In this document: one piece after another, positions 17,041 to 51,375 of the stretch
How positions within the stretch are numbered: the stretch's first letter is position 1
Layout: the number at the start of each line of letters is the position of its first letter
Source of the DNA: Parcubacteria group bacterium
GTDB lineage: Bacteria > Patescibacteriota > Microgenomatia > UBA1400 > PJMF01
Length of the DNA stretch: 51,375 bases
Reading direction: 5' to 3'
NCBI GenBank assembly: GCA_943350175.1
Contig: CALQZX010000006.1
Span: 1 to 51,375, forward strand
Translations under genes and position numbers: made by a program
Notes under the pieces: generated by a model
Database searches by the model: none
Told to the model about the DNA's origin: nothing
Seen by the model: the letters and a program-made list of their open reading frames with translations, nothing else

Positions 17041-17789
17041 ACTTGTTGTTCTTTCGTCAAGTTGCCTCGCTTGGACACACTCAGATTTCCAAGACGCTCG
17101 TCATTGGCACCATATTCTCCCACCACCACTCCGTCTACCATGTTAACTGATCTCGAAGCAAATTTGAGATACTCCAAGTCATGTGTAACCATGATAACTG
17201 TTTTTCCTTGTTCATTAAACCGCTTAAATAAAGCCATGATCTCCTCACTGGCTTTAGAATCTAAATTACCGGTTGGCTCATCAGCTACGATCAAAGCTGG
17301 ATCGGAAATCAAAGCTCTAGCCAAAGAAACGCGCTGTTGCTGACCACCTGAGAGCTCAGCTGGGTTCTGCGTCGCTCCCTGATCCATTCCCACCATTGCT
17401 AATACTTCCAAAGCTCTTTTCTTTCTCTCTTCTTCTGGTAAACCACGCAAAGTGAGTGGAAAATAAACATTTTCCAACACACTCAAAGACTTCACCCAAT
17501 TAGATTGCTGATAAATAATACCGACTTGCTGTTTACGCATTTGTGCCCGCTCATCTTCACTGAAAGAATATAAGTTCTTACCCAAAAAAGTCACTTCCCC
17601 CTTAGTTGGCGGTTCCAAACCAAGCAGAATATTTAGCATCGTACTCTTTCCGCAACCAGATGGCCCGAAGAGGATCATGAAATCACCTTTATTAACCGAA
17701 AAACCAGCCCCTTTAATGATTTGAGTTTCTTGCGTACCCAAGTTAAAAGATTTGTGAATTCCAGTTAGTGCTAAGATCTGTTCTGACAT
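17037..17789 (-). CDS. ABC transporter ATP-binding protein (MacB/LolD/FtsE-like)
   Basis: Walker A GPSGCGKST, Q-loop, signature LSGGQQQRVSLARAL, Walker B LIVADEPTGNLD and H-loop VTHD. An ATGA-type overlap links it to the permease gene. Confidence 0.92.
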   Translation of the reverse strand: MSEQILALTGIHKSFNLGTQETQIIKGAGFSVNKGDFMILFGPSGCGKSTMLNILLGLEPPTKGEVTFLGKNLYSFSEDERAQMRKQQVGIIYQQSNWVKSLSVLENVYFPLTLRGLPEEERKKRALEVLAMVGMDQGATQNPAELSGGQQQRVSLARALISDPALIVADEPTGNLDSKASEEIMALFKRFNEQGKTVIMVTHDLEYLKFASRSVNMVDGVVVGEYGANDERLGNLSVSKRGNLTKEQQV

Positions 17790-17798
17790 ATATTATAT

Positions 17799-18194
17799 TT
17801 ATTCTATTGTTGTTGGATCGAAATTAATTTTCTTAACTTCTGGCCATAAAAATTTACTATCATTTTCTGTATGTAACGATAAATAAAAGCCTTCCATTGG
17901 AACATCTGTCAGTAAAACTGCATGAATTGTTCCAGGAACGCTACTTGTTTGCTCAGCAGTCTGCGAGCGATTTTTTTCACTTGAACCATATTTGACGAAG
18001 CCAATGGTCTCATTAGGAGTCGTCCAAAAAACTATCGCCTGATGAGGATCGATGAAAGTTACTTCGAAGTGATTGTTAAATTCACGTTGCTGTTTATTGA
18101 ATATCACCAGAGAGAAAGCTAGGCCGATAGCGAAAGCCACCAAAATGATTACGATGATTAACTTTTGTTTGAATGATGATTTTTTTAATTTCAT
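17799..18194 (-). CDS. Small membrane-anchored protein with an FN3/purple-acid-phosphatase-N-like ectodomain
   Basis: 131 aa. TM helix LIIVIILVAFAIGLAFSLVIF, then ...IDPHQAIVFWTTPNETIGFVKYGSSEK...GTIHAVLLTDV. This resembles the C-terminal FN3 units of the upstream giant protein. Its start overlaps the giant gene's stop in an ATGA. Confidence 0.6.
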   Translation of the reverse strand: MKLKKSSFKQKLIIVIILVAFAIGLAFSLVIFNKQQREFNNHFEVTFIDPHQAIVFWTTPNETIGFVKYGSSEKNRSQTAEQTSSVPGTIHAVLLTDVPMEGFYLSLHTENDSKFLWPEVKKINFDPTTIE

Positions 18195-24100: not shown

Positions 24101-25318
24101 ATAAGTTCCAGCTGCTACTCCTTTAGTGTCATCTGCCAACGTTGCTGGAGCAACTGTTAACGCAGTCCAAGTATTTGCAGAAACATTGTATCTATAGAAA
24201 GTAGTGCTGCTAGCTCCACGTAGAACATACATGTTTCCACCGTAATAGACGAAATCACTACCTGTAGAAAGAGCTGTGGGAGCATCCTCTACACCAAGGA
24301 AAGTATTAGCTGCAGGATCATATTTCCAGAAACTATATAAATTATTGCCTTGAAAAACATAGATGTAACCATCACTACTGTTGCTTATGGAACCAGCATA
24401 TCTGGATACGGCTGGTAAATTCGCTAGAGTTGACCAAGTATTAGTAGCGACAGTATAAGCATAAAAAGTTGCCGTACCTCCTTGTCTGGTTACATAAATT
24501 TTTGTTCCATCTGTCGATATGTCGACCTCTTCATTGATAGCAGCCGGCAAAGCAGCCACAGTTGACCAAATATTATTGACCAAATCATATCTATAAAAGG
24601 TAGTGGTATTAAGGCCACGTGGCGTATAAAGATAATTTCCAACTATTGTGAGATCAGCTCCTGCTCCGATTGTGGCAGGAGCACCGGTTAACGGAGTCCA
24701 AGAGTTGCTTCCAACATCATACTTATAAAAATCCTGAGTGCTATTACCACGCAAAGCATAAATGTTTTCGCCATCATTTTCCAAACTTCCACCAGCATAA
24801 ACCAGGTCAGGAAGGTCACTTAACATTTCCCATGAATTGCTGGCAATTGAATAACGGGCAAAAGCAGTCTGATAGCCACCAAACATGACGTAAATATAGC
24901 CGTCAAAATATTCTAATTCAGAACCAGAGTAAGTGCCGCGTGGCATATCTGCCAAAGTGGTCCATGTATTATCAGCCGGAGAATATTTCCAAAATAAAAC
25001 ATCTCCTAAACCTCTTGTAACATAAAGATCGTTGCCATCAGAAGCCAGAGCCGTACCAATTCCCATATTCAGGTCTGGAGTTCTCCAGCTTCTTGCCCCA
25101 ATTGTTCCAGCCGCTTCAATTGAGAAATCGCCTTCTTTGACAGAGCTGTCCAAACCAGTCATAGTGCCAGCACTCCAGTCAGAACTGGTGGTAAAAACGG
25201 CTTGATTGGCAGAAACAGAACTGGAGAAAAAGATGAAATTGAATACTACAAAAAATACGACTGATAAAATCGCAGCATGCAAACCAAAAAAATCGCGAAT
25301 TTTATATCTCGAATTCAT
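18191..25318 (-). CDS. Giant secreted protein (~2,375 aa) with two multi-blade Kelch-like beta-propeller regions, beta-sandwich modules and an FN3 array
   Basis: Signal peptide: MNSRYKIRDFFGLHAAILSVVFFVVFNFIFFSSSVSA/NQ. There are more than 20 repeats of about 47-50 aa with the pattern F[YW][RK]Y[DN]...N[ST]W[ST]...A.P...G...Y[IL]Y..RG. The C-terminal third has FN3-like units. The ORF track starts at a TTG at 25384; the ATG at 25318 immediately precedes the signal peptide and is preferred. Confidence 0.85.
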   Translation of the reverse strand: MNSRYKIRDFFGLHAAILSVVFFVVFNFIFFSSSVSANQAVFTTSSDWSAGTMTGLDSSVKEGDFSIEAAGTIGARSWRTPDLNMGIGTALASDGNDLYVTRGLGDVLFWKYSPADNTWTTLADMPRGTYSGSELEYFDGYIYVMFGGYQTAFARYSIASNSWEMLSDLPDLVYAGGSLENDGENIYALRGNSTQDFYKYDVGSNSWTPLTGAPATIGAGADLTIVGNYLYTPRGLNTTTFYRYDLVNNIWSTVAALPAAINEEVDISTDGTKIYVTRQGGTATFYAYTVATNTWSTLANLPAVSRYAGSISNSSDGYIYVFQGNNLYSFWKYDPAANTFLGVEDAPTALSTGSDFVYYGGNMYVLRGASSTTFYRYNVSANTWTALTVAPATLADDTKGVAAGTYLYFFRGSNTNTFYRYDVAGNSWSTMANAPATVGAGGTLTYPGSGDYIYAARGNTTLSFWRYSISGNTWDDVSVTDLPVDSEAGAGARLISNGTDLFYAPGVGISRFFKYTISGGGANTWTEMAKPPFAPYYGTDLSYYDGKIVALAGWYKNDMYEYEISENSWRELQNIHGYLAQDLGLYAGASIEYDGSGSFYIAYGNSRTYVLTYTPGATKYVSSGTWISEPRDLQYVSSFGDFTVVESTPASSDILYETRTSNDSISWSSWASVSGSNIASPAQKYIQIRVTLLASGGGLTHTPTLSEINIDYAGDAGVPTNPSTVVASSQEVGGVALSNGESYSHIRPYFSWTGASDAETSVAGYYVYFGNNEVADPEIVGNYQTNANYVSTSSLATGSYYLRIKTKDIAGNISEASTLFTYVYGGISPAQSLSVTEFLGTTEEVNTTNNQLKLASRENGFWLQEALSNTPAAMQYGAKNTAYVSTSNKLYVFRGANVATFYSYDLETDLWTTLANAPANIYIGGGVVEGPSGYLYGLRGNNTSSFYRYDIDANEWSDEAASDTPLAVYYGAAMEYDNLGYIYAMRGNDDDAFWRYNTTDDSWESLANLDFGATANAVNNSAYAGADLAIDRAGGYVYATQGNLRDGFSVYNINSNSWTVLPDVPQLPYLGSSIEYVPSVNAVYYLAGNYSDKVYKFDVGSQAWSEVKSAPTTFYYGASIKNIGDNLYSIVGNNTTSFYKYDVSKDSWLIPNRDLFGRTYQGVNNIPPGYGEDLVKGDGDYFYLTRGNYSDDFIRYNSRSGEIKRMAVAPVGAYNGSSLVYDSTANKIYFTGGYFVQKFYVYDIASNTWSEDDPTPAVIDYGSSMVYDGSRYIYLNRGGTNTTFYRFDTQGASGSKWSAMAVSPVGLGYGAELVLNGNYIYSLRGQNVANNPFYRYDITANTWSDPAVSDLNIDVYNDGFASYGGDGNIYVARGENDNDFFKYSIANNIWTTLANAPANVSAGGSGESDGVNKLIMLTGAATGANTFNDGIYTYVMQTEDSGFEEIGTYISPVHDLTSVYKWVNLQLDYVVADNADLTIQTRSSADNSTWSSWTAVSAEKFNGTAYNYEIKSPPARYIQVKFFFTSADGVYSGVVNNYTVNYYKDTAAPTNPQNAGLAAYSNNTPGSIIVSGNWHSHENPYFDWPDAESTGGASDTNTGSGVVGYYVYFGTDATAEPTSAGSLQTNSSYSANNLIDDTTYYLRIKTVDDALNVSTDVWAPFIYKHDGGASSAPADLVSDPSGYTSTDDFDFSWSAATSSGALVTEYCYKTGAETGIYSADQCTSDTFVTGIPSHKVGANTFYVRSKDEAGNYSGYASAPYYFVDSGNAPAPPTNLAVTPSSNTENSFAFSWDPPAINTYYGSVSNLSYYYSINALPTARSTTATSVRNLIAGSYATLPGENVFYVVTKDEAGNINYSNYASVVFTADTTAPGIPLNMDIADVSVKATSSWKIALSWEKPAEGVTDHYSIHRSTDGEVFSQIATSGGISYVDTKLTQQTYYYKVKACDSTNNCGVFSEIVELFPDGKFIEAAGLTAEPVISAITTRKATASWATTRTADSRIAYGTGSGDYFDEEVSNSTQTTSHTLNLLNLSPGTTYYYVAKWTDEDGNTGESKEATFTTEPAPTTEEPKVKSMGLDTALIEFISKNAAKIRLYYGESSAFGGMEEISTGSGEGAHTVQLSDLKDGTKYYYKINSFDSEGEEYEGEIHSFETLPRPKVKNIKISQVKGTARSTLLITWESNTSTSSIVTYYPVTAPGAAKDEVNLALKSGKHQMIIYDLEPQMTYAILVKGKDAAGNEAAGELQQIATSADSRPPQITDLKVEGEILGAGEEATAQLVVSYNTDELASAQIEFGEGSGATYSQKTQEDGSLTSHHLVVISGLTPSKVYHLRALSKDQYSNVGESVDKVVITPKAADNALDLVVSNMSLIFGFLAK

Positions 25319-25506
25319 GTCTATAAATATGATAGATAGTCGTTTAAAAGAAGTCGAGTCTATGTTTTTTCTAAACAAGATCAAAAATGATCTAAATATA
25401 TAAAATTTTTAAAAATTACCAACAAAAAACAACATTATCTAAAATTAATCTTAAATTCAACAAAATAAACCGCTTTGAGTTAAAACTTTCAAGTGGCTAG
25501 AAACCC

Positions 25507-28741: not shown

Positions 28742-31432
28742 ATGGATATCCAAAGTTTGCGTCAAAAGCACCCTCGTTTGATTTATCAGGGTTTCAACTT
28801 GGCCAAAGAAAACAACGATCTTGTACTAACTTTTGATTTGGTTCTGGAACCAAATATTAACTTCTCGCCAACTCTTAGAATAAAGAATCTGCGTCAAGAA
28901 ATCCTCAGTCAAATCGACCAAAAAGAAAATTTAGACCCTCAACTAGATAGTCTATTTTTTCATCTTGGCCTAGCTGAAATTCCTAGTTATTTCAAAGCCG
29001 CTTGTCCTGCTGAAATAGTCATCAAGCATCAAGGCCAAATCACAGAAAAAGCGCTTAGCTTTTGGCATGATTTACTCATCAATGGACTGGGAGAGTTTTA
29101 TTACCAAAACCAAATCGACTTCACCGATGAGAATTTCGTTAAAATTAAACTCGAAAAAACTGAGTCTGTCGGCTCAGCAAAAAAACAAAAATTTATCCCC
29201 ACCAAAAACAGTCAGGTTTTAATTCCTGTTGGCGGCGGGAAAGATTCGGCAACGGTCCTAGCAATGATGGAGGAAAGAAAATTGCCTTATGATGTGCTCT
29301 TACTTGCTCCTCACGCCCCCGCCGCCAAAAAAATCGCTTCACTCCTACAAAAAAATGGTTTGTGCCAGAAAATCATCGAACTCGAGCGAACAATTGATCC
29401 GCAGCTAATCGAGCTTAATAAAAATGGCTATCTCAATGGCCACACTCCATTTAGTGCCTACTTGGCCTTCGCCAGTTCAACTATCGCCTATCTTTATGGT
29501 CAGGAAAATATCTTACTCGGCAATGAAGCCAGCAGCGAAGAAGAAAATTTGCTTTACCTAGGTCATAAAATTAATCACCAGTACTCTAAAAGTCTGGATT
29601 TTGAGAAAAAATTCTCTGAATACTCCGACAACCACCTTTTTGCTGAAATTTCTACTCCACCAAAATATTTATCTCTACTGCGCTCACTTTCTGAACTAGA
29701 AATTACACAAAAACTTTGTGAGTTCGCAGCCAAAGATCCTAGATTCGCCGAAGTGCTGACTACCTTTAAGAGTTGCAATGTCGGCCAAAAAAATGATATC
29801 TGGTGTCACAATTGTCCAAAATGCGCTTTTGTTTTCACCATGTTCTCAGCATTTTTGGATGAAAAATTTGTTAGTGAGAAAATTTTCAAAGAAAATCTTT
29901 TTGCCAAAAACTCTTTAGAACAAACTTTCCTCGATTTGGCTGGTTTAGGCGACAAGAAACCCTTCGAATGCGTCGGCACTTTTGCCGAAGTGTGTCAGGC
30001 TTTATCGCTCGCCTACCAAAAAAGCAAAGCCCCAAGTCCATTTCTCAAGGAAATTGCACAAAAAATTGCTCAAAAAGAACTCATGGATAAATTGAGAGAT
30101 AAGTCGATTCTCATTCTTGGTATGGGTCGTGAAGGTTTTTCTAGCTTAGAGTTTTTGCGCAAAAACTTTCCAAACAAAAAAATCGCCGTGGCTGACGAGC
30201 AAGAGAAAAAATTACCAGTAGATGAAGAGCTCACTGCTTTTTTTGGCAAAAATTATCTGGAAAAAATCGACCAGTACGACTTAATCATCAAAACCGCCGG
30301 CATTCCTCTAACGACTCCAGAAGTCCAAAAAGCCATCGCTAAAGGCAGTGAAATTCTCTCAAACACTCAGATTTTCTTTACTCTTTGTGTGGGTAAAATC
30401 ATCGGCATCACCGGCACCAAAGGCAAAAGCACCACTTCCAAACTAACTTATGAAATTCTGCGCGATGCTTCTAAAGATACGGTTTTACTCGGCAACATTG
30501 GCGAAGCTCCACTCAATCAATTAGACAAAATTACTAAAGAAACTCTAGTCGTTGATGAGCTTTCTTGTCACCAATTAGCAGAGCTAAAAGAAAGTCCTCA
30601 CGTCGCCGTCATCTTGGACATTAAATCCGAACATTTGGACTATTACAAAGATTTCGCCAGTTACTTTGAAGCCAAAAGTGCCATTGCTCGTTTTCAAAAA
30701 GAAAGCGACTACTTAATCTACAATCCAGAGCTTGAAGGCGCTGCGAAAATGGCTTCACTAAGCCCTGCCAAAAAAATAACTCACAGCTTAACCAAAACCG
30801 CAGAGGTCTATAAGAAAAACAACCAAATTTTCTACCAAGAAGAATCGATCATCGATATCAATGAAATTTCCTTAATTGGCGAGCACAATCTTTACAACAT
30901 TATGCCAGCCATTTTGGTCGGGAAACTATTGGGCGTCAAAAACGAATCAATTAGAAAGACCATCAAAAATTTCCACAACTTATCTCATCGCCTAGAACTA
31001 ATCGCGGAAATAAATGAGGTCAAATACTTCGATGATTCCATTGCCGTCAATCCTCATGCTGCAATTATGGCTATCAAAAGTTTTCCAAAAAACTCCGTCA
31101 TTCTCATTGCTGGTGGCTATGAAAGAGATCAAGATTTTACCGAATTAGCCAAGACGATCCTTGAATATCAAGTCAAAGCCCTCATCGCTTTGCCAACTAC
31201 TGGCCAGCGCTTGATTGATTTTGTCTTGAAAGAAAAAAACATATCTGAGATTGACATCGCAACAGAAACAGCAGAAACCATCCAAGAAGCCGCGAAAATC
31301 GCCTATGAAAAAGCTCAAGTAAATGATATTGTTTTGCTCAGCCCAGCTAGTGCTAGCTACAATAGCTTCAGCAACTATGAAGAAAGAGGCGATGCTTTCA
31401 AAAAAGCAGTTTTGGAAAACCAAGCGAAATAA
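28742..31432 (+). CDS. murD: Fusion protein: an N-terminal ~430-aa PP-loop-like domain (possible MurL-type epimerase) joined to C-terminal UDP-MurNAc-L-Ala--glutamate ligase (MurD)
   Basis: The C-terminal half has ILILGMGREGFS (Rossmann), GITGTKGKSTTS (Mur ligase P-loop) and downstream Mur ligase middle and C-terminal blocks. The N-terminal half has IPVGGGKDSATV (an SGGxDS-like PP-loop) and CHNCPKCAFVF. Confidence 0.8.
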   Translation: MDIQSLRQKHPRLIYQGFNLAKENNDLVLTFDLVLEPNINFSPTLRIKNLRQEILSQIDQKENLDPQLDSLFFHLGLAEIPSYFKAACPAEIVIKHQGQITEKALSFWHDLLINGLGEFYYQNQIDFTDENFVKIKLEKTESVGSAKKQKFIPTKNSQVLIPVGGGKDSATVLAMMEERKLPYDVLLLAPHAPAAKKIASLLQKNGLCQKIIELERTIDPQLIELNKNGYLNGHTPFSAYLAFASSTIAYLYGQENILLGNEASSEEENLLYLGHKINHQYSKSLDFEKKFSEYSDNHLFAEISTPPKYLSLLRSLSELEITQKLCEFAAKDPRFAEVLTTFKSCNVGQKNDIWCHNCPKCAFVFTMFSAFLDEKFVSEKIFKENLFAKNSLEQTFLDLAGLGDKKPFECVGTFAEVCQALSLAYQKSKAPSPFLKEIAQKIAQKELMDKLRDKSILILGMGREGFSSLEFLRKNFPNKKIAVADEQEKKLPVDEELTAFFGKNYLEKIDQYDLIIKTAGIPLTTPEVQKAIAKGSEILSNTQIFFTLCVGKIIGITGTKGKSTTSKLTYEILRDASKDTVLLGNIGEAPLNQLDKITKETLVVDELSCHQLAELKESPHVAVILDIKSEHLDYYKDFASYFEAKSAIARFQKESDYLIYNPELEGAAKMASLSPAKKITHSLTKTAEVYKKNNQIFYQEESIIDINEISLIGEHNLYNIMPAILVGKLLGVKNESIRKTIKNFHNLSHRLELIAEINEVKYFDDSIAVNPHAAIMAIKSFPKNSVILIAGGYERDQDFTELAKTILEYQVKALIALPTTGQRLIDFVLKEKNISEIDIATETAETIQEAAKIAYEKAQVNDIVLLSPASASYNSFSNYEERGDAFKKAVLENQAK

Positions 31433-35440: not shown

Positions 35441-35514
35441 CGGAGTGTAGCTCAGATGGCTAGAGTGCGGCGTTCGGAACGCCGAGGTCGCAGGTTCGAG
35501 TCCTGTCACTCCGA
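35441..35514 (+). tRNA. tRNA-Pro (anticodon CGG)
   Basis: Hand-folded cloverleaf: acceptor cggagtg/cactccg (C1-G72, A73), D-arm gctc/gagt, anticodon arm cggcg-ttCGGaa-cgccg, T-arm gcagg-ttcgagt-cctgt. 74 nt, with no encoded CCA. Confidence 0.9.
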
Positions 35515-35516
35515 CT

Positions 35517-36192: not shown

Positions 36193-37200
36193 ATGTCCCA
36201 CTTCCAACCCTGGCAATCATGGAGTCCAGCCAAACGCAATATTTTTGGTCTGCCAACTTGGGATTACTGCCCGCTCCCCCTAGCTAATAAAAAAACAAAT
36301 TTCCTCAAGCAAAAATCAACGAAAGAACCCATTAGCTACTGGTGCTCCTGGTATGCTTTTGGCGAGAAAATCAGCGAAAAAATCATCCTCGAGCAAGCTT
36401 CCTTGCTCAATAAAAGCAAACTCAAAATAGACTACATTTTGATTGATGATGGCTGGACCAAATGGGGTGATTGGCACAAAGTTGACGAGGAGAAATTTCC
36501 TAGTGGAATTGGTGCACTTAGTAAAAAACTGGCTCAAAAAAACTTTAAAACTGGCTTGTGGCTAGCACCTTTTCTAGCAGATAAAAAATCTCGTTTATTC
36601 AAAGAGCATCCAGAATATTTTTTAAGAAGCAAATCTGGCAAATTAGTTAATGGTTTCAAAAGTTTTCCCTTTTTTGACAGCCTTCTTCACCCAAGATTTT
36701 TACTCGATTTTAACAAAAAGGAAGTCAAGCAATTCGTTTTTGAAAGCCTTGACCAGATGATGAGAAAATGGAACATTTCTTTACTCAAATTGGATTTTTT
36801 GTACGCACCCTATTTCAACCCTCATTTAAAAAATGCCGACGAGGCTACAAAACAAGTTCAAGAGCTCCTAATTTACCTCAAAACCCAGCATCCGCAGGTT
36901 TTTACCATCGCTTGTGGCTGTTCATTCTCTGACGCCGCTAATTTGGCAGATGCCATTCGTATCAGCAAAGACATTAGTGCTCCTCCACCCATGCCAAAAA
37001 TATTTCGAAAAATATTCTACGAACACAGAGCACAGGTGCTTTTTGCGAAACTTAAACACAAATCCATGTGGAAAGGTTGTCTGGCAGATCCAGACGTGAG
37101 AATTTTTGATTTAGAAAACAAAAAAAGCGAAGCTATATTTGAAAAATTGTCGGAAAGCAAAGATTTTCTCCAAGGTTTTGGAGATCAGTTAAAAAAATAA
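36193..37200 (+). CDS. Compact GH36/GH27-clan alpha-galactosidase-like glycoside hydrolase
   Basis: YILIDDGWTKWGDWHKVDEEKFPSGIGALSKKLAQKNFKTGLWLAPF, LLKLDFLY (KxD nucleophile block) and AIRISKDI are present. At 335 aa it corresponds to the catalytic barrel only. Confidence 0.65.
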   Translation: MSHFQPWQSWSPAKRNIFGLPTWDYCPLPLANKKTNFLKQKSTKEPISYWCSWYAFGEKISEKIILEQASLLNKSKLKIDYILIDDGWTKWGDWHKVDEEKFPSGIGALSKKLAQKNFKTGLWLAPFLADKKSRLFKEHPEYFLRSKSGKLVNGFKSFPFFDSLLHPRFLLDFNKKEVKQFVFESLDQMMRKWNISLLKLDFLYAPYFNPHLKNADEATKQVQELLIYLKTQHPQVFTIACGCSFSDAANLADAIRISKDISAPPPMPKIFRKIFYEHRAQVLFAKLKHKSMWKGCLADPDVRIFDLENKKSEAIFEKLSESKDFLQGFGDQLKK

Positions 37201-37421: not shown

Positions 37422-37493
37422 GCCCTCATAGTTTAACGGATAGAACGGAGGTTTCCTAAACCTTAAATCCAAGTTCGATTCTTGGTGGGGGCA
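37422..37493 (+). tRNA. tRNA-Arg (anticodon CCU)
   Basis: Hand-folded: acceptor gccctca/tgggggc (one G-U), D-arm gttt/gaac, anticodon arm gaggt-ttCCTaa-acctt, variable loop aaat, T-arm ccaag-ttcgatt-cttgg, discriminator A. 72 nt. Confidence 0.88.
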
Positions 37494-37514
37494 CATTTTT
37501 ATTTAATTTTCAAT

Positions 37515-40987: not shown

Positions 40988-41977
40988 TTAAAAAAGATTT
41001 TGTTTTTTGTTCTTTAACCAAAATTTCTGGCCATCGCTCATCATTTCAATTGTGCCCAATTGATCGGTACGCAATACTTGAGCACCAATAGACCGGAAAT
41101 TGTCCAAAATCTCCTCGTTTGGGTGGCCAAATTTATTATTTAAGCCACAGCTAATCAGGGCAATTTCGGGTCTAGATTTAGTCAACAATTCGAGGCTAGA
41201 TGATGTTTTAGACCCATGATGCCCTACTTTTTGCATGCCTACTCTCGCTATCAGTCCGGCACTCACGAGTGCCACTTCCCTGGTGGACTCGAGGTCGCCA
41301 AGCAGAAGCAGTTTCACTTCACCAAAACTAGCAAATATCACTATAGATCCGTTATTATCACTCATTTTAATAGCTAGTTTTTGCCAATCCTCGTCCGATA
41401 ACTCATGTTCGGGTGACTGCCAAGAAAAAGCTTGTGCCGCCTCTAGACTTTTATACTCTTCCAGATCAAAGTCAGTTGGCGTTAAAAATGTCAAAGATAA
41501 GAGAGAATTACTACTATTGTACTTAGCCTGGTGGAGCGAGCTAAATTCAGAAAAAGCAATCTGTTGGCCTAAAAACGGCTCTTTTACAATAGTTCCGAGC
41601 TTCTGCAAGGCAGATACCTGCTCTTTTAACTCGAGAAACGTCTGAGAATCCTTATAATTAGACAGTGGTAAGATTAGATAGGCAATTGAATAAACTTGCG
41701 TTAATTGCTGGAAACCTCCAATGTGATCTTCATCGAAATGCGTCAAAACAAGCACGTCGATTTTTTTATCCCAGAACGGCAGTTGCTTATCCAAACACGA
41801 CAAAACGCTTTCATCGGGACCAGTGTCAATTAGTATTTGCGTAAAACCAAAACTAAGTAGAATCGCGTCGCCTTGTCCCACATCGCACGTCACAACATGC
41901 AAAAAATGGTCGGGCCATTTAAAGAAAATCTCACACACAAAAATCGCCAAAGCACAGAATATAAAAACCGGTTTCAT
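40988..41977 (-). CDS. comEC: ComEC C-terminal metallo-beta-lactamase domain, encoded as a separate ORF
   Basis: VTCDVGQGDAILL...ILIDTGP and VLVLTHFDEDHIGG (HxDxDH), plus ..VGHHGSKTSS.. An N-terminal TM helix is present. Its ATG overlaps the stop of the upstream ComEC membrane ORF (ATGA). Confidence 0.8.
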   Translation of the reverse strand: MKPVFIFCALAIFVCEIFFKWPDHFLHVVTCDVGQGDAILLSFGFTQILIDTGPDESVLSCLDKQLPFWDKKIDVLVLTHFDEDHIGGFQQLTQVYSIAYLILPLSNYKDSQTFLELKEQVSALQKLGTIVKEPFLGQQIAFSEFSSLHQAKYNSSNSLLSLTFLTPTDFDLEEYKSLEAAQAFSWQSPEHELSDEDWQKLAIKMSDNNGSIVIFASFGEVKLLLLGDLESTREVALVSAGLIARVGMQKVGHHGSKTSSSLELLTKSRPEIALISCGLNNKFGHPNEEILDNFRSIGAQVLRTDQLGTIEMMSDGQKFWLKNKKQNLF

Positions 41978-43344
41978 GCAAAAATCCTATATTTATTTTT
42001 TGAGTATCTTTTAGTTTTTAAACGAGCGGTCCAGCAGATAGCTAGCAAGTTAATTAGGATAAATACTGCTGTATATAGTTCTTTATTTTCAATGAAGACG
42101 AAGTTCTTGAAAGGTAATTTTTCCAGTAAATTTATTATTAGAAATAATATATCCAATGTTTTTGATATCATATAAGATAAAATGTGATCAAAAAAAGTGA
42201 CCATAAAAGTGCTAGACAAAAATAACATGATAAATGAAGCTAAAAACAATATAGTCAACAACTCCACCAGAGGTAATACCACAAAATTAGCCAAAATAGA
42301 CAAATAGTTCAATTCAGAAAAATTGAAAATCAAAATAGGGATTAAGAAAAACTGAGCGCAAAAAGTGAGCAAGATATTTTTTAAAAAGTAATTTTTACCT
42401 ATAAATGGCTCTTTTTCCAGGTAATTATATAAAAATATAATGCCAAAACTTGCTAAAAAAGAAAATTGAAAACTCAAGGTTTCAAGATAAAAAGGATTGA
42501 TAGTTAGCATAAAAACAGCGGCCAAATACAAGTTAAAAAGCGATAAAAAAGACCTTTGAATAACAAAAGAGGCATAAAAGGCCAAAGAAAGAGTTAGAAA
42601 GGCTCTTATGGTGGATGCCACTGCTCCCACCAGAGAAAAATAGGCAAATACAATCAAGAAGTACAGCCAAAAAACCTGATTCTTAGTCAAGAGCTTCATC
42701 AAAGGCCTGATAAAAAAGAGGCAAAACTGCAAAAAAATGATGAAGTTAGCCGAGGATGCTGATAAAACATGAAGAATCCCAATAACTTTAAATGAGTGAT
42801 ATGTCTCTCGATCTATCCCAGATACATCTCCGAAGAGTATTCCTTTCACTAGAGGGATACCTCTGGCTCCGACAGTCTCCTCAAGTTTCTCGAGGGAGTC
42901 ATTTCTTTTATGCTCCAAAGCTTTCTGGCCGAGTAAATAGCGATACTCGACCGAATTGTAAGTCTTATGTAATAGATAAATAGATCGATTAATGAGTCTT
43001 TTTAATAAAAAAATGATCTTATCAGTCGAAGCAGTTGCTCTGCTAAGTGATTTACTCTGTTTATCTTTGATATATTCATCGTTTTTGGTCAAAAATGCCT
43101 CACTAGTAGGCTTTGTATCAGCAGTCAAACCACCTTTGTTTGCATTTGCTTCGGTTTTGGGCTTTTTTACTAAAAAAATCACTCCAGGCAGCTTTGGTCG
43201 ATATGTTTCTGATATATTTCGGGTCGTAAATATTACTTGAAAATTTTTAGTAAATATTAAGCTACCTAAAGATATCAATATATAAACTTGTATTTTCCTT
43301 AAATTCTTATAAGTCATCCACCCTTTTGACGCGAAAGCGTCCAC
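41974..43344 (-). CDS. comEC: ComEC/Rec2 integral-membrane competence channel domain
   Basis: GILFGDVSGIDRETYHSFKVIGILHVLSASSANFIIF is the Competence-domain signature and is followed by multiple TM helices. GTG start at 43344, with an alternative ATG at 43317. Confidence 0.8.
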   Translation of the reverse strand: MDAFASKGWMTYKNLRKIQVYILISLGSLIFTKNFQVIFTTRNISETYRPKLPGVIFLVKKPKTEANANKGGLTADTKPTSEAFLTKNDEYIKDKQSKSLSRATASTDKIIFLLKRLINRSIYLLHKTYNSVEYRYLLGQKALEHKRNDSLEKLEETVGARGIPLVKGILFGDVSGIDRETYHSFKVIGILHVLSASSANFIIFLQFCLFFIRPLMKLLTKNQVFWLYFLIVFAYFSLVGAVASTIRAFLTLSLAFYASFVIQRSFLSLFNLYLAAVFMLTINPFYLETLSFQFSFLASFGIIFLYNYLEKEPFIGKNYFLKNILLTFCAQFFLIPILIFNFSELNYLSILANFVVLPLVELLTILFLASFIMLFLSSTFMVTFFDHILSYMISKTLDILFLIINLLEKLPFKNFVFIENKELYTAVFILINLLAICWTARLKTKRYSKNKYRIFA

Positions 43345-47127: not shown

Positions 47128-47871
47128 CTATATTTTTAGGCACTTTTGGAACTTGGCGAGGATTTTTTTGACGCCTTCTACCTCAGGAAAATAGTAGCTT
47201 AAAATAGCCTCATCAGCCACCAAAACGCTTAAAAATCGATCTAAAGCCGAAAAAAAATTGGAATTTTCTTGCTGAGTGAACGTTTTATTCTCTGCTTTTA
47301 TCCTTATCAGTCGATCAACTTCTTTGCTAATACTTGAGTAGAGCTCAAAATGATCGTTGAGCTGAGCCTTTTGTCCTATAATCTTAAAGTCGTCGCCAAA
47401 GAGCCACTCTGAAACTTTTAAAACTAAAGCAGCATTCTTGTATGTTTTTTGTAGTTCCAGTTGGATTTTTTCAGTAAGTAGTCCAGGTAATAGGTAAACG
47501 GCCCTCGTTAAGCTAATAGCCTTATTTTGAGTCAGGTAAGAGCGCAGATAGCGAAAGTTTTTGTCTGTGATTGGTGCCTCCAAAAAGACGATAATCGACC
47601 AGTCACCCTGCCATTTGTCATGATCTGCCAGAAGAGCCGGAAAAAGGTCTCCTAGGTAGCTTTTGCCGTAGGAACTAAGGCCATATCTCCACTCTGCTTG
47701 AGTTTTATCGATGCGTAAGAAATCTTTTTTATCCAAAAGAAACAAAGAAGATTGGAGTCCCGTTTGGCTAAGCACTGGCACTAGTTGATGAAGTTGCTGA
47801 AAATTAAGCCAAACCAGCTCATTTTCGCTTGGATAAAGGAAAAGCAAAATTCTCTTACTATTTTCTTTCAT
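47128..47871 (-). CDS. PaaX-like / Cas2-fold-containing putative regulator (weak family assignment)
   Basis: WQGDWSIIVFLEAPITDKNFRYLRSYLTQNKAISLTRAVYLLP resembles the PaaX central ferredoxin-like domain (W.g.W.lv.f.ip...R..lr..L...Gf..l..svw..P). Confidence 0.4.
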   Translation of the reverse strand: MKENSKRILLFLYPSENELVWLNFQQLHQLVPVLSQTGLQSSLFLLDKKDFLRIDKTQAEWRYGLSSYGKSYLGDLFPALLADHDKWQGDWSIIVFLEAPITDKNFRYLRSYLTQNKAISLTRAVYLLPGLLTEKIQLELQKTYKNAALVLKVSEWLFGDDFKIIGQKAQLNDHFELYSSISKEVDRLIRIKAENKTFTQQENSNFFSALDRFLSVLVADEAILSYYFPEVEGVKKILAKFQKCLKI

Positions 47872-48415
47872 AGATCAATCTTTTTTATATTAATAACGCA
47901 TAATATACTAAAATATTAATATTCAAAGCAGGCTGCAGCCAAAGGTTTTTCACAAAATTAAATACCCAAAACCTAAAAATCGCTGTCTAAGATCGCGAAT
48001 CAATTTACTTAAAAAGTAATTTTCCAGATCTGATAGTCAATTCAACACATTCAAAAACCCTTCTCAAACCCGTATTTTTAGTTTTCACTTCACATAATAC
48101 ACAAAAACTAAGTCAATTCACAAGTGCTAAAGTTGTGGAAAAGGTGAAGAGCTAAAAACACCATTTCTGACTAAGAAAGCCAAGTTGATCTATTTTGCTT
48201 GGTTTTGACTATTATGAAAACCCGTGAAAACCAAGCGGGAATGAATTTCTAGTTCTCTCGAGTGAAGATAATTTTGACTGAAGAGAAAAACCCGAAATAA
48301 TCTTCTCTCTTGCTAGCAAATCTACTAACATCTAGACTGATAGCAGTTAACAAAAAGGGCCCAAAAAAAACGTCTAATGATCTGGATTAGACAAGAAAAA
48401 AAAGACTAGTCAAGC

Positions 48416-51375
48416 ATGCTTGCCAAAATACCCAAACCTACCAGCCCAATCGACAATCAAGCCACTAAAAACGGCTTTTTGAGTTTTTTTAAAGAAGTTG
48501 TGGAGCAAAATAATGAGCAAAACAATGAAAAAGAACTAAACTCAAGCAACTCGATTGAAGAAAAAACCCAAAAAACAGAATCCTCCGACTCAAAGCAATC
48601 AAAAGACGTCCAAAAATATCTAAAAGACTATCTTTTGGCAGTCGCAAAGACCGGCTGCTCATCAGCCACCATTCGCAATTACAAAAGTGATATCAATCAA
48701 TTCTTGGATTTTCTAGGCAACTACGAACTAAATGATTTGAGAAACAAACCCAAATTGCTCGCTTTTGCCCATTTCCAGAGGGACAAGGGTCTTAAAGAAA
48801 ACAGCATTAAACGTAAATTGGTCAGTATTACTCAGTTCAAGATCTGGCTTAAAGACCAAGGTTTAATCAATTCAGAAATTCCTCTCAGTACCTTTGGCCA
48901 AACTCAATCAAAAAACGATCAAAATGACGATTTGGAAAGAAACATCATTGATCAACGCAGTGAGAAACACACCAATCAAAGCAATGATAAAAAGACAAAT
49001 GAAACACAAACTCCAGGCAAGAAAGACCAAAGAAAAGACAAAAAATCTCGCAGTCGCCTTTTGATCCTTCTAAACATATTGGCCTTGTTACTTTTCATGG
49101 GTGGCCTAGCATATTTCGCCTACCAACAATTCGGCCAGGCTATTATTTCCATGGCTTATCCAAGTGCACCAGTCGCTCCAAGCAGAATTCTTTCATATCA
49201 AGGTCGCCTAACCAACACCGCCCAAAGCCCTATCTCATCGCCAACCGCTATGAGCTACTCGCTTTATGATGCCGATACCGGCGGTTCGATACTCTGGTCA
49301 TCCAACACCTGTACTATTGATCCTGATCAAGATGGTATTTTTAATGCCAATTTGGGAGCTGGAGCTGGCACCGGAGCAGACAGCGAAAACTGCGGTGGAA
49401 CTATAGGCGACGAAGTTTTTACTGAATACGCCAATGTTTGGCTGCAAGTAACTATTGGCGCAGAAACTCTTACACCTCGTCAACCGATCCGCACCGTGGC
49501 TTACGCTCTTAACTCATCTACTCTACAAGGCTTACCTCCAGCAGAAGTCGCTACCAACAGCACCATCCTGATGATGAACAGCTTGGGAGAAGTCGTCCTT
49601 GGAACCAACAACCCCATCATTAAAGCTGCTACCACTAGCTCTGGAATGACTATTGAAGCGAATAAAATCACTATCAAAACTTATTCTGGTTCAAATGGCG
49701 ACATTGTTTTAGACCCCGATGGAACCGGAATTGTTGATATCCAAGGCAACGCTAGTATTTCTGGCACCAGCACGCTTTCTGGCAATGTCTATATAACTAG
49801 TCCGAACAATCTCATCTTTGGCGGAATCACTGCTCTCGGAGAAATTAGCGCCGCTAATGATTCTGGAGCCTACCTAGTGGGAGCTTACGACGAATTTATC
49901 AATTCTAGTTCTGGAAATGTCCAGGGGGTTCTAAAAGACTTGGACACTGCAATCAATGCGGTCACTGGCTCAGGCACTGGCTCTTTCTGGAACGTTACTA
50001 GCGGAACACTTCAACCAAACAACAATACTTTGGATTTATTATTTGGTGGAACTTCTACTGCTTCCGCAAAATTTGCTTTTAAAAACATTAGCAATGGAAC
50101 TCCAACACTGTCTTTTGCCAATCAGGCCTCAGCTTTTGATCTAGCCAATTCTACGGTCAATTCTCTAGACATAGAGTCTGGACTGATGTCATTTGACACA
50201 AATAATTCTAGAGTTGGTATTGGAACAACCACTCCTACCGTTGAGTTGGATGTTAATGGCTCAATCAACTACACAGGAAATTTAAAAGCAGCTGGCTTAA
50301 ATACACAAATTCAGTTCAATGACGGTGGAATTTTTAATGGCGACTCTGGCATGACCTGGGACAACGTCAACAAAAAGCTAGTTCTCAGCGGCAATGGAGT
50401 TGATCAGTGGATGGGAGCTATTAGTGGAGTAATGGATGATGTCAGCTCATTTGGACTGATGTTTTTGGGTGGCAATGCCTCTGGCACTGACATGAATGGC
50501 GGATCGATGAATATGAATGGAGGAATGGGAAACGGAACAGGCTCAGGTGGTCCTGTCTACGTGGGTGGTGGAGAAGGTGGAGAGACAGGCGATGGCGGAG
50601 CAATGGAATTCAACGGAGGATCTGGCGGACTAACATCAGGCAATGGAGGCTACCTTTCATTTTCAGCTGGGAGTGCCCCTACATCAGGAGATGGCGGATC
50701 ATTGTATTTTAACGTTGGGCAAGGACAAGGTGGTGGCAGTGAAGGGAAAATAGTTTTCGGTGTTTCTGGAAATTATCGTCCAAGTGCAATTCTCGACACC
50801 TTGTCCATTGCCACAACCGATAAAAATTTTTCCTTCCCTAATCAGTCAGGAACATTTGTTGTTGCTGATTCAATAACAGGCAACGTTGGAGTTGGCACGA
50901 CCACCCCAGGATCACGATTAGAAGTTGTAGGAAACATAGCCGCAACCGGGATCAATGGGTTTATATCATCACCCTATCAAATAGTTGCTCCAAAAGGAAT
51001 TGTGGGTATGGGGACAGGAGCATTAACCTCAATTGGCGCAGCTGTTGCTACAGGAGCATATCCTTGGGATGTAGCCGCTGACCCCACTGGTCGTTTTGTG
51101 TATGTGACAAATCAAGGTTCAAATACCGTTTCCATGTACTCTGTCAATCAGTCAACAGGAGCATTAACCTCAATTGGCGCAGCTGTTGCTACAGGATCTG
51201 GTCCTTACAATATAACTACTGACCCCACTGGTCGTTTTGTGTATGTGACAGATTTCAGTTCAAGTACCATTTCCATGTACTCTGTCAATCAGTCAACAGG
51301 AGCATTAACCTCAATTGGCGCAGCTGTTGCTACAGGATCTGGTCCTCGTGGTGTAACTACTGACCCCACTGGTCG
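48416..51375 (+). CDS. Large membrane protein (at least 986 aa; 3' end beyond the window) with a cytoplasmic tyrosine-recombinase SAM-like (core-binding) domain, one TM helix, and a huge ectodomain with tail-fibre-like motifs, a Gly-rich region and YVTN/lactonase-type propeller repeats
   Basis: Hand translation from the ATG at 48416, with an in-frame TAG at 48407. The frame stays open to the window end, so the ORF is absent from the track. N-terminal domain: VQKYLKDYLLAVAKTGCSSATIRNYKSDINQFLDFL...LKENSIKRKLVSITQFKIWL. TM helix: LLILLNILALLLFMGGLAYFAY. Repeats: DPTGRFVYVTNQGSNTVSMYSVNQSTGAL. Confidence 0.8.
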   Translation, partial: MLAKIPKPTSPIDNQATKNGFLSFFKEVVEQNNEQNNEKELNSSNSIEEKTQKTESSDSKQSKDVQKYLKDYLLAVAKTGCSSATIRNYKSDINQFLDFLGNYELNDLRNKPKLLAFAHFQRDKGLKENSIKRKLVSITQFKIWLKDQGLINSEIPLSTFGQTQSKNDQNDDLERNIIDQRSEKHTNQSNDKKTNETQTPGKKDQRKDKKSRSRLLILLNILALLLFMGGLAYFAYQQFGQAIISMAYPSAPVAPSRILSYQGRLTNTAQSPISSPTAMSYSLYDADTGGSILWSSNTCTIDPDQDGIFNANLGAGAGTGADSENCGGTIGDEVFTEYANVWLQVTIGAETLTPRQPIRTVAYALNSSTLQGLPPAEVATNSTILMMNSLGEVVLGTNNPIIKAATTSSGMTIEANKITIKTYSGSNGDIVLDPDGTGIVDIQGNASISGTSTLSGNVYITSPNNLIFGGITALGEISAANDSGAYLVGAYDEFINSSSGNVQGVLKDLDTAINAVTGSGTGSFWNVTSGTLQPNNNTLDLLFGGTSTASAKFAFKNISNGTPTLSFANQASAFDLANSTVNSLDIESGLMSFDTNNSRVGIGTTTPTVELDVNGSINYTGNLKAAGLNTQIQFNDGGIFNGDSGMTWDNVNKKLVLSGNGVDQWMGAISGVMDDVSSFGLMFLGGNASGTDMNGGSMNMNGGMGNGTGSGGPVYVGGGEGGETGDGGAMEFNGGSGGLTSGNGGYLSFSAGSAPTSGDGGSLYFNVGQGQGGGSEGKIVFGVSGNYRPSAILDTLSIATTDKNFSFPNQSGTFVVADSITGNVGVGTTTPGSRLEVVGNIAATGINGFISSPYQIVAPKGIVGMGTGALTSIGAAVATGAYPWDVAADPTGRFVYVTNQGSNTVSMYSVNQSTGALTSIGAAVATGSGPYNITTDPTGRFVYVTDFSSSTISMYSVNQSTGALTSIGAAVATGSGPRGVTTDPTG
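51014..51375 (+). repeat. 141-bp (47-aa) in-frame tandem repeats; at least 2.5 units, continuing past the window end
   Basis: Units start at 51014, 51155 and 51296. The first 42 nt of each unit and the gaccccactggtcgttttgtgtatgtgaca / tccatgtactctgtcaatcagtca blocks are identical between units. They are separated by short, highly divergent patches. Confidence 0.9.

Follow-up and report, generated by a model that had tools for sequence, protein, structure and literature searches.

The gene at the end of the window, as we call the whole stretch of 51,375 nucleotides that was analysed, codes for 986 residues, the beginning of a giant single-pass membrane protein that is predicted to be N-in and belongs to a conserved family. 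This giant gene and a gene for a PaaX-fold regulator constitute an obligate divergent pair, with the regulator gene in this divergent position, upstream of the giant gene, in 75 of 78 further loci. The structural reading given by the first-pass annotation holds: a cytoplasmic Xer-type core-binding (CB) domain and a linker precede one transmembrane (TM) helix, beyond which lies a tail-fibre-like ectodomain of very large size, no catalytic domain is present, and all the features it described were found where it had placed them. The accompanying PaaX-fold regulator gene is new here. A literature search found no paper describing the fusion of a CB domain, a TM helix and a giant ectodomain.

The reading frame that the annotation had seen to stay open until the window end is present in frame 1 of the plus strand and counts 986 codons without a stop, from the ATG at 48416 to base 51375; this 5′ part of the giant fibre gene (48416..51375) is cut off by the contig end. 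The conserved N-terminus M[PL]AKIPKPT of the homologues backs the start codon at 48416. The cytoplasmic N-terminal tail (residues 1-64, 48416..48607, plus strand) is of low complexity and rich in N, Q, E, K and S, with a conserved extreme N-terminus (family consensus MPAxxxxxTSxxxxFSTF). It leads to the CB domain (residues 65-158, 48608..48889, plus strand) and then to a charged linker (residues 159-212, 48890..49051, plus strand) rich in K, Q, N and D, at the end of which lies the K/R cluster KKDQRKDKKSRSR.

The CB domain was recognised by Pfam and by AF2/Foldseek. Phage_int_SAM_1 (PF02899) matched residues 77-149 (E = 8.4e-7, 29.6 bits), above its gathering score of 22.3, and homologues scored 33-37 bits, or 70-72 bits with two copies summed. 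The Pfam families SAM_3, SAM_4 and SAM_5 also matched the region, more weakly, and the first ~90 positions alone of the NCBIfam models XerD, XerC and XerA matched. The AF2 model of residues 56-165 was a helical bundle (pLDDT 84), and its best 24 Foldseek matches in the PDB comprised 23 tyrosine-recombinase N-terminal domains and the structural-genomics fragment 2kob. Among the top matches were archaeal Xer (4a8e, prob 1.0), the CB domain of lambda Int (2oxo, TM-score 0.66/0.76, rmsd 2.2) and CB domains of IntI. Because the best E-value was 0.067 and none was below 0.001, the fold is assigned from the make-up of this hit list and from the Pfam score. Profile and fold thus agree with the annotation, which had expected the N-terminal region to match SAM-like integrase profiles. 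By BLASTP, the domain is also 30% identical over 99 aa to a genuine Xer recombinase (L022), which has the catalytic domain PF00589.

The domain is strongly basic, with a pI of 9.68 in the window and a median of 9.4 in the family. Helix B carries the near-invariant motif TIRNY[KR]SDIxQF and helix D the near-invariant SIKRKLxSIxQFxxW, the invariant residues being T, N, Y, S, D and Q in the former and R, K, S, Q and W in the latter. In Cre, in lambda Int and in Xer, these two helices make the major-groove contacts. Clusters that share 35-45% identity elsewhere keep T[IVL][RK]NY[RK]SDI essentially unchanged. Also, some family members carry two CB domains in tandem, a duplication which argues for a selected binding module.

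No match to PF00589 was obtained by Pfam scan in the window ORF, nor in 5 homologue ORFs from the loci (3 of them complete), 4 N-terminal regions of 520 aa and 11 representatives of 3,900-4,900 aa, whereas the control Xer proteins L022 and L023 scored 142-155 bits. The annotation had remarked that no catalytic domain follows, which is what the search returned for the window ORF and for every homologue scanned. The segment that leads from the CB domain into the TM helix (family median 77 aa) is too short for a catalytic domain to fit there, and, with no PF00589 match, the R-K-H-R-H/W-Y active site of tyrosine recombinases was not found. The giant protein cannot recombine DNA. In recombinases, the CB domain clamps DNA jointly with the catalytic domain, and isolated CB domains usually bind weakly. 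Relatives are named "site-specific integrase" by NCBI, a naming that misleads since the catalytic domain is absent.

An exhaustive HMMER search retrieved 247 clusters with the same order of CB domain, TM helix and giant ectodomain, mostly of 2,000-7,697 aa, the upper figure being the longest representative. A relative is encoded in at least 145 species genomes, and the informative names among these are of Microgenomates-group Patescibacteria. Complete homologues in the species-genome loci ranged between 1,447 and 3,294 aa (two shorter ORFs are cut by masked N runs), and one homologue of 4,558 aa lies on an 865-kb contig. The fusion is not due to chance, because over 100 sequence clusters, independent of one another, show this architecture.

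The single TM helix was taken as residues 213-236 (49052..49123, plus strand) within a hydropathy window of residues 211-236. Six K/R residues are found in the 15 positions before it and none in the 15 after, and the same bias was seen in 70 of 83 family representatives (reversed in 5 of the 83). No N-terminal signal peptide or hydrophobic segment was found in the giant protein. The helix is predicted to be an uncleaved signal-anchor, and the positive-inside rule places the N-terminus inside the cell, as the topology proposed in the annotation demands.

The part of the ectodomain contained in the window is of 750 aa and acidic (pI 4.05). Its membrane-proximal portion and stalk (residues 237-620, 49124..50275, plus strand) are conserved, and the mosaic adhesive trimer (MAT) fibres of Bdellovibrio have an N-terminal domain to which residues 250-322 match. 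The NCBIfam model Bdello_MAT_N (NF053851) matched 18 of 18 homologues (best E = 3.3e-9); the window copy scored 28-34 bits over model positions ~8-81 of 162, for a curated cutoff of 60 bits, which indicates remote homology rather than family membership. Similarity to homologues ends at about residues 440-640, with one masked ORF aligning to 840. Then comes a variable fibre region (50213..50932, plus strand) containing two VG[IV]GTTTP...L[ED]V.G motifs, VGIGTTTPTVELDVNG (50213-50260, residues 600-615) and VGVGTTTPGSRLEVVG (50885-50932, residues 824-839), and the Gly-rich stretch GGGEGGETGDGG (50564-50599, residues 717-728). YVTN/lactonase-type beta-propeller blades (51014..51375, plus strand) occupy the end of the window; Pfam Lactonase matched from residue 867 (65.8 bits), and the best PDB match was the YVTN propeller of the archaeal S-layer protein 1l0q. 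Motifs, Gly-rich stretch and blades had all been read by the annotation and were all located in the ectodomain. At the DNA level the blades are a tandem repeat of a 141-bp unit (2.6 copies with 89% identity), which likely caused the assembly to break at the contig end. Along the giant relatives GNVGIGTTxPxxxLxVxG recurs many times, and homologue ectodomains match the phage tail-fibre PHROGs 9942 and 18345 (E down to 2.8e-17). Lectin, propeller or S74 domains are inserted in family ectodomains, with Peptidase_S74 in 1 of 5 locus homologues and in 1 of 11 giant relatives. Complete members share a C-terminal domain ending in FNWWIVN, a region missing from the window. The ectodomain is built like a phage tail fibre or a Bdellovibrio MAT fibre, with a MAT-N-like base and repeated VGIGTTxP modules.

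The partner gene (47128..47871, minus strand) encodes a PaaX-family regulator of 247 aa with a winged helix, a Cas2-like PaaX_M domain and a helical C-domain. PaaX_M was found in 24 of 33 homologues (best E = 4.1e-10) and scored 19.7 bits in the window copy, under the cutoff of 24. The top Foldseek match of its AF2 model (pLDDT 87) was E. coli PaaX (8a39, E = 1e-7), aligned from end to end (263 columns), followed by Rv0674 (3kfw) and 3l09, and JGI names homologues 'DNA-binding transcriptional regulator PaaX'. In another set of loci the divergent arrangement was seen in 16 of 19. Paralogous giant genes within one genome each have their own PaaX-like gene, as in SRP286056_co2_100 (L053, L077) and SRP286056_co1_440 (L095, L101). 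No paa genes were detected within the window. The neighbourhood of the giant gene consists of syntenic housekeeping genes, without phage genes.

The two genes are separated by a shared control region of 544 bp (47872..48415), conserved in the family at the DNA level in an alignment of 18 loci. Over its last 360 nt it shares 60-82% identity with homologous loci, a value equal to or above that of flanking coding DNA in 5 of 6 comparisons, and the spacer is typically of ~450-620 bp in loci with a credible ATG call. The most conserved block (48087..48139), unique in the window and made of near-invariant columns, comprises ACTTCACATAATACA and the inverted repeat TTCACAA-N9-TTGTGGA (48117-48139). 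It is overlapped by a putative minus-strand sigma-70-like site (-35 TTGTGA, 18-nt spacer, -10 TATTAT) from which the PaaX-like gene would be transcribed, such sites being not enriched over shuffles. Of 48 loci surveyed (47 distant ones and the window), 17-24 had CTTCACAT/TTCACATA ~317 nt ahead of the ATG, and 26 had GTCTAATG, at a median of 53 nt ahead of it. The palindrome GTCTAAT-GATCTGG-ATTAGAC (48372..48392), present as one exact copy in the window, ends 24 nt before the start codon. Its stem is invariant, without compensatory changes; distant relatives keep GTCTAATGAATCTGG as a unit, often with a second GTCTAA ~10 bp upstream, and in many loci the 3′ half is lost, uncompensated. Rfam gave no match in the control region, which shows no consensus RNA structure or convincing covariation (0 and 1 compensatory pairs). 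The palindromes and tandem hexamer repeats are DNA-type (non-covarying) elements, unique within the window. The region was also considered as an origin of replication and rejected, as it has one DnaA-box-like site and no GC-skew switch.

The reading that we tentatively prefer, with belief and doubt almost in balance, is that of a membrane-anchored host-contact fibre whose cytoplasmic CB domain would bind DNA. A surface-fibre and host-contact role is suggested by homology to fibre domains and, by analogy, by the lifestyle known from cultivated Patescibacteria. The ectodomain would be a cell-surface fibre of episymbiotic cells in contact with a host or a surface. The CB domain, being basic and keeping invariant polar residues on the DNA-contacting helices, may still bind DNA, most plausibly at some motif within the conserved control region of its own gene. 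The fibre would then be coupled, physically and by regulation, to its own locus, jointly with the PaaX-like repressor and in a manner analogous to membrane-tethered regulators of the ToxR/CadC type. The annotation had thought of ToxR-like signalling or of DNA tethering, both of which stand as hypotheses. The obligate PaaX-like neighbour and the conserved control region lend the regulatory idea a definite partner, and equally a competitor, since the CB domain may bind that regulator instead of DNA. More ambitious, and in our view doubtful, is the proposal that a recombinase CB domain was exapted as the DNA-binding end of a host-contact fibre and that, with the PaaX-like repressor and a conserved operator region, it makes a previously unrecognised trans-envelope signalling or DNA-tethering device, through which ultrasmall episymbionts would couple physical host contact directly to their DNA. 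The DNA-binding reading is weakened by the usually weak binding of isolated CB domains and by the fact that the conserved motifs could all be sites of the PaaX-like winged helix and promoter elements; these motifs are unlike Xer/dif arms beyond a short CATAA, and there is no evident mechanism by which a signal would pass along a fibre of several thousand residues and through one TM helix.

The same motifs would suit a different role, in which the CB domain is a protein-docking module that, according to the state of the fibre, brings to the membrane the PaaX-like repressor encoded next to it or some other cytoplasmic factor. Expression would be controlled by sequestration, by analogy with Mlc/PtsG or with anti-sigma factors such as RsgI. 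The strict co-occurrence of both genes, even as paralogous copies in one genome, fits such docking, a winged-helix dimer accounts for palindromic operators with no contact between the CB domain and DNA, and the conserved short motif at the extreme N-terminus could be a docking peptide. Nevertheless, the invariant residues occupy canonical polar and basic positions of DNA-contacting helices in a strongly basic domain, and we consider docking rather unlikely. We know of no precedent for a CB domain as a pure protein-binding module. DNA could also be bound for a spatial and not a regulatory purpose, the CB domain tethering the chromosome or its own locus at the site of the fibre and of host contact, with a transertion-like help for co-translational export, or acting with Xer/dif or with DNA incoming from the neighbouring ComEA/ComEC uptake. 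A basic domain that a short flexible linker keeps close to the inner face of the membrane would suit this role, a trimeric fibre would carry three CB domains (six in the two-CB members), and comEA and comEC lie within 5 kb of the giant gene in the window and in related genomes. However, the synteny with comEA, comEC and LeuRS is limited to some lineages (LeuRS is adjacent in just 19 of the 78 further loci, against 75 for the PaaX-like gene), the control region failed as a replication origin, and no dif-like site was identified. Tethering therefore seems unlikely.

That the CB domain is the relic of an old gene fusion, a ligand-free soluble plug or a folding unit fixing the orientation of the signal-anchor, is improbable. 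Giant type II membrane proteins do need some cytoplasmic head, but the conservation of T[IVL][RK]NY[RK]SDI is far above what a passive plug requires, and the domain is duplicated in tandem in some lineages. As to an artefact, in which a truncated integrase pseudogene or prophage remnant was joined to an unrelated adhesin by misassembly or miscalling, one could invoke that the gene is broken off in the window as well as in L001 and L002, that one Logan contig is frameshifted at the TM helix and that relatives bear an integrase name. This explanation is already contradicted, and we regard it as extremely improbable, because over 100 clusters, drawn from independent assemblies, have the ORF uninterrupted, the 4,558-aa gene on its 865-kb contig among them, because the syntenic housekeeping neighbourhood is devoid of phage genes, and because internal tandem repeats explain the contig breaks.

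To our knowledge, how CPR/Patescibacteria recognise and hold their hosts is largely unexplained outside Saccharibacteria. In Saccharibacteria, type IV pili have been implicated (10.1101/2024.11.25.624915). The giant family is among the largest genes of many Microgenomates-group genomes and lies almost wholly outside Pfam; its sole recognisable domain leads to automatic annotation as integrase, which inflates the counts of mobile-element genes and conceals what is probably a surface organelle. Should DNA or the regulator beside it prove to be bound by the CB domain, the family would offer the first tyrosine-recombinase DNA-binding module reused as a membrane-tethered device outside recombination. 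It would also provide a testable route from host contact to gene control in bacteria not yet grown alone. The tightly conserved module consists of three parts, the regulator, a ~500-bp control region and the CB domain, and is small.

Compared with XerC/XerD/XerA-type recombinases, the CB domain is a homologue, by sequence as well as by fold, of their four/five-helix counterpart, is likewise basic, and keeps the signatures T..Y[RK].D[IL]..F of helix B and S..R.L.S...F..W of helix D. Unlike them, the giant family has no catalytic domain and no RHR-Y active site, and its CB domain, sometimes in tandem, is followed by the linker, the TM helix and the giant ectodomain. The partner protein shares the three-domain fold of PaaX, the aryl-CoA-responsive repressor of the E. 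coli phenylacetate catabolon (8a39), of Rv0674 and of 3l09, and its gene is similarly divergent from its presumed target beside palindromes; it differs from PaaX by its length (247 aa vs a chain of 316 aa), its marginal sequence similarity and the lack of a paa catabolic context. As in ToxR, CadC and TcpP, a cytoplasmic N-terminal domain of DNA-binding type (N-in being predicted here), a single TM helix and an extracytoplasmic domain succeed one another. There is no homology, however: those regulators have OmpR-type winged helices where the giant protein has a SAM-like CB domain, neither Trans_reg_C nor another wHTH was matched in the giant ORF by the Pfam and NCBIfam scans, and their outer domains are small sensors compared with a fibre of several thousand residues.

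The MAT fibres of Bdellovibrio bacteriovorus are homotrimers with a cleaved signal peptide, a conserved beta-rich N-terminal domain of ~130 aa, no cytoplasmic domain, a length of ~1,000 aa and variable C-terminal tips, S74 or non-S74 (Caulton et al. 2024, PMC10769870). The giant family resembles them by a conserved beta-rich domain straight after the export or anchor signal, by the long tail-fibre-like repeats that follow, by Peptidase_S74 in some members and, likely, by a surface role in contacting other bacteria. In contrast, it covers half of the MAT_N model at 34 bits against the 60-bit cutoff, is anchored by a TM helix, exceeds them 2-7 times in length, and keeps its C-terminal domain conserved. 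Among CPR bacteria, giant surface proteins of Vampirococcus (PMC8080830) and of Absconditicoccaceae (PMC13059738) have been proposed to serve in host recognition. With these and with phage tail fibres and tailspikes (Peptidase_S74 chaperone), the family shares repetitive fibre modules, an occasional S74 domain, lectin or propeller inserts, and giant size combined with a membrane anchor. Unlike these proteins, for which neither a cytoplasmic nucleic-acid-binding domain nor a dedicated PaaX-like partner has been reported, the giant family carries a CB domain on the cytoplasmic side and is paired with its own regulator gene.

The giant gene starts with an ATG at position 48416 (+) and stays open in frame 1 over 986 codons, reaching the window end without a stop; it is truncated by the assembly. 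A 141-bp tandem repeat encoding propeller blades (51014-51375, +) probably broke the assembly here, and the contigs of the homologous loci L001 and L002 likewise break within the giant gene. No Shine-Dalgarno sequence was visible upstream of the ATG. The first-pass annotation had described this open frame, together with an integrase-type SAM-like domain at a cytoplasmic N-terminus and no catalytic domain behind it, and our analyses agree with it on all of these points. The two tests that it had proposed, on the profile match and on the predicted topology, both gave results that support it.

For the core-binding (CB) domain, Pfam Phage_int_SAM_1 matched residues 77-149 (E 8.4e-7; 29.6 bits, above the gathering score of 22.3), SAM_3/4/5 matched more weakly, and the NCBIfam models XerD, XerC and XerA aligned by their first ~90 positions only. 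The AlphaFold2 model of residues 56-165, based on an alignment of 18 sequences (pLDDT 84), showed helices at residues 62-78, 83-100, 105-123 and 128-147. N-terminal domains of tyrosine recombinases took 23 of the 24 top Foldseek places in the PDB, the remaining one being a structural-genomics fragment. Examples are the archaeal Xer 4a8e (probability 1.0), XerA, IntI and Tn1549 Int, and lambda Int (1z1g and 2oxo) gave rmsd values of 2.1-2.2 with a TM score up to 0.76; no E-value against the PDB was below 0.001, the best being 0.067. By BLASTP, the CB domain aligned at 30% identity to L022, a genuine Xer recombinase which possesses the catalytic domain PF00589. This domain was absent from the window protein, from 5 locus ORFs (3 complete), from 4 N-terminal regions and from 11 members of 3,900-4,900 aa. 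The CB profile of the family also matched residues 4-101 of PDB 9i5v chain 14, a 401-aa Porphyromonas gingivalis protein deposited as 'RaiA' in a ribosome structure, of which only 34 residues are modelled, in the tRNA-binding site; we regard this match as uninformative.

The hydropathy scan revealed a single transmembrane (TM) segment covering residues 211-236, of which we take 213-236 as the helix. Six K/R residues are present in the preceding 15 residues and none in the following 15, a positive-inside bias which predicts that the N-terminus is cytoplasmic. The pI is 9.7 for the CB domain versus 4.05 for the 750-aa C-terminal part.

When word-indexed protein databases were queried by the N-terminus or by the CB profile, short fragments alone came back, just two of them in one search. 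When 1.84 billion representatives were searched exhaustively by HMMER with residues 1-275, 247 clusters passed E<=1e-3 and 102 passed E<=1e-10; almost all measure 2,000-7,697 aa. The architecture was tallied on 83 representatives longer than 700 aa in which a clear CB match is followed by a TM segment. In these, the CB domain is close to the N-terminus, the median distance to the first hydrophobic segment is 77 residues, and the N-terminal side of the TM segment is richer in K/R in 70 proteins, the opposite side in 5. Also, the extreme N-terminus MPAxxxxxTSxxxxFSTF is kept in distant members, and tandem CB pairs were found in 3 of 4 scanned N-terminal regions, while 2 further members show a duplicated motif by eye (P0015, P0019, P0022, P0024 and P0026 carry two CB domains before the TM helix). 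The NCBI label for such proteins is 'site-specific integrase' or 'phage integrase N-terminal SAM-like domain-containing protein', and it is also given to members as long as 5,205-5,466 aa.

With each GTDB species represented by one genome, scanning gave 19 family loci at first and later at least 145, of which 80 were retained. Informative record titles named Pacebacteria, Woesebacteria, Gottesmanbacteria, Microgenomatus, Microgenomates and Patescibacteria group; implausible ones ('uncultured Pseudomonadales', 'Vitreimonas', 'Methylococcaceae', and 'TM6' at 40.7% GC) were left out of the taxonomy. Complete ORFs in these loci ranged between 1,447 and 3,294 aa, and a copy of 4,558 aa sits on an 865-kb contig. 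In L009 and L011, masked N runs cut ORFs that seem short but complete, and the stops of these ORFs are not real. A truncated copy of 317 aa was observed in L007 (3377-4330), and in one Logan contig (L002, 8187-10084) the gene is divided by a frameshift located precisely at the TM helix.

The ectodomain has the features listed by the first-pass annotation, namely two VG[IV]GTTTP motifs, a Gly-rich stretch and YVTN/lactonase blades, each at the place described. Directly after the TM helix, ~90 residues (RILSYQGRLT...) matched the NCBIfam model Bdello_MAT_N in 18 of 18 homologues, over only half of the model and with a score well under its cutoff. This model describes the N-terminal domain of the mosaic adhesive trimer (MAT) fibres of Bdellovibrio. 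These fibres similarly carry a conserved beta-rich domain directly after the signal peptide, for which a location at the surface of the predator has been proposed (PMC10769870). Homologue ectodomains also matched phage tail-fibre PHROGs (E down to 2.8e-17), Peptidase_S74 and Laminin_G_3, and are otherwise dark to Pfam. In nearly all relatives, similarity to the window protein reaches residue ~440-640 and then ends. Complete members have in common a C-terminal domain that ends in FNWW[IL][VI][NQ] and occurs in 67 of the 93 representatives above 1,500 aa. It lies in the last ~450 aa (...SLIYVTPxxSTxNQVLYVK...FNWWIVN) in L004, L005, L010, L014, L015 and L021, is preceded by a coiled-coil-like segment, and had no relative in Pfam or, by sequence, in the PDB; the window copy ends before it. 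This is thus a family with conserved ends and a variable, repetitive middle, which in the window protein includes the propeller blades.

Divergent from the giant gene lies a gene encoding a 247-aa PaaX-like protein (47128-47871, -), which we assign to the PaaX family of regulators. PaaX_M is present in 24 of its 33 homologues, some of which JGI annotates as PaaX, and its AlphaFold2 model (pLDDT 87) aligned along the full length with E. coli PaaX (8a39; Foldseek E 1e-7), followed by Rv0674 and 3l09. Among the first 19 family loci, 16 have this gene upstream and divergent, as do 75 of the 78 further loci, the other 3 of which have no upstream sequence; where two genomes carry two giant-gene copies it stands next to each copy. 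The LeuRS gene, which adjoins in the window, is present in just 19 of the 78. The giant gene, the PaaX-like gene and the control region between them constitute a conserved pairing, reported here as new.

The spacer between the two genes typically measures ~450-620 bp. In 5 of 6 comparisons, conservation of its last 360 nt equals or exceeds that of the coding DNA on either side (in one, 82.5% identity versus 78.0% and 73.4%). In the window (544 bp, 47872-48415), it contains ACTTCACATAATACA with the inverted repeat TTCACAA-N9-TTGTGGA (48087-48139), overlapping a minus-strand promoter-like site, and the palindrome GTCTAAT-N7-ATTAGAC (48372-48392), located 24 nt upstream of the start codon; each is unique in the 51-kb window. 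Distant relatives have GTCTAATGAATCTGG at the palindrome site, in many cases preceded by another GTCTAA at a distance of about one helical turn; by eye, the tandem or inverted layout of GTCTAA showed no clear correlation with the number of CB domains. The motif AAACCCG[AT], present four times, and TCTAGACT were also observed in this region and in its equivalents in L002-L101.

Other readings of this DNA were considered. Boxes resembling TTATCCACA in some loci, and the start of record CP011212.1 at the control region, had suggested an origin of replication, which we reject: the window control region holds only one 1-mismatch DnaA box, DnaA boxes are not enriched overall (14 found, 13 expected), and GC skew keeps its sign downstream of the giant gene in 8 loci. 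CP011212.1 (L005/L024, positions 1-540) is linearised exactly at the control-region start with the giant gene first; it is recorded as the complete 853-kb genome of 'TM6 bacterium GW2011_GWF2_28_16', yet the locus has a GC content of 40.7%. A structured RNA, riboswitch or ncRNA was also rejected, the 544 bp giving no Rfam match even at E<=1. RNAalifold detected no consensus fold or convincing covariation in the spacer, only an invariant GTCTAA/TTAGAC stem that lacks compensatory pairs and a helix of 6 pairs, one of them compensatory (-5 and -2.4 kcal/mol), and distant loci lose the 3' half-site of the palindrome without compensation. What the spacer conserves is primary sequence, and we take the motifs to be DNA-level elements. 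The likeness of ACTTCACATAA to a dif/Xer site is limited to a CATAA core without a matching second arm, and the minus-strand promoter-like site, with ACTTCACATAA in its -10 region, accounts for this sequence better; the likeness is retained as no more than a lead.

Synteny of ComEA/ComEC is limited to closer relatives, and their membership in the module is not supported. ComEC itself is encoded by two ORFs with a 4-bp overlap (40988-43344, -; Competence 41974-43344, metallo-beta-lactamase 40988-41977), a split also present in L001, L002 and L102, which suggests a feature of the lineage and not an error. Elsewhere in the window, the NusG-L11-L1-L10-L7/L12 cluster, usually contiguous, is interrupted between L1 and L10 (3253-6356 and 25723-26664, ~19 kb between). 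The insert (6414-25384, -) encodes Ldh_2, ThrRS, DUF2207, MacB/FtsX, an ABC ATPase, a 131-aa ORF, an 816-aa protein without Pfam match and, at 18191-25384 (-), another giant protein (2,397 aa) that contains Kelch and fn3 repeats. An 896-aa Mur-ligase protein (28742-31432, +) has MurD-like N, M and C domains in residues 454-869 only, its first ~450 residues being without Pfam match, and a second Mur ligase of 459 aa comes after it. The sole Rfam matches in the window, tRNA-Pro(CGG) (35441-35515, +) and tRNA-Arg(CCT) (37422-37494, +), flank a GH31/melibiase-like gene (36193-37200).

In the structures of Cre, lambda Int and Xer, helices B and D enter the major groove. In the family, T85, N88, Y89, S91, D92 and Q95 of helix B and R133 and W144 of helix D are invariant, and K134, S137, Q140 and F141 of helix D nearly so. 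Since these residues are combined with basic charge and with tandem CB duplication, the most economical reading is that the CB domain would still bind nucleic acid, and the neighbouring conserved control region would be its most obvious target. We tentatively favor, at a little short of an even chance, a membrane-tethered DNA-binding module that acts jointly with the PaaX-like repressor and resembles ToxR only in its topology. Alternatively, the CB domain would dock the PaaX-like protein, with control by sequestration; we regard this as unlikely. Tethering of DNA for spatial reasons appears distinctly improbable. To the idea that the CB domain is a conserved plug without ligand we give little credence. 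An artefactual fusion is contradicted by the data and can practically be dismissed.

The window protein would be a membrane-anchored surface fibre, probably trimeric as its phage and MAT relatives are. Cultivated Patescibacteria are episymbionts. Giant surface proteins are the usual host-contact candidates (PMC8080830, PMC13059738). From this lifestyle and these candidates, we infer that the giant fibre may serve host or surface contact. In a more novel reading, which we consider doubtful, the protein would be part of a new trans-envelope device joining host contact to DNA.

We found no description of a CB-TM-giant-ectodomain fusion in the literature. The window protein takes a part or a logic from three known systems: lacking the catalytic domain, it is no tyrosine recombinase, by the NCBIfam criterion it falls outside the MAT family, and it has no homology with ToxR-type regulators. 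We class it as a putative giant surface fibre of bacteria, set apart by a cytoplasmic module without precedent and by its dedicated regulator.
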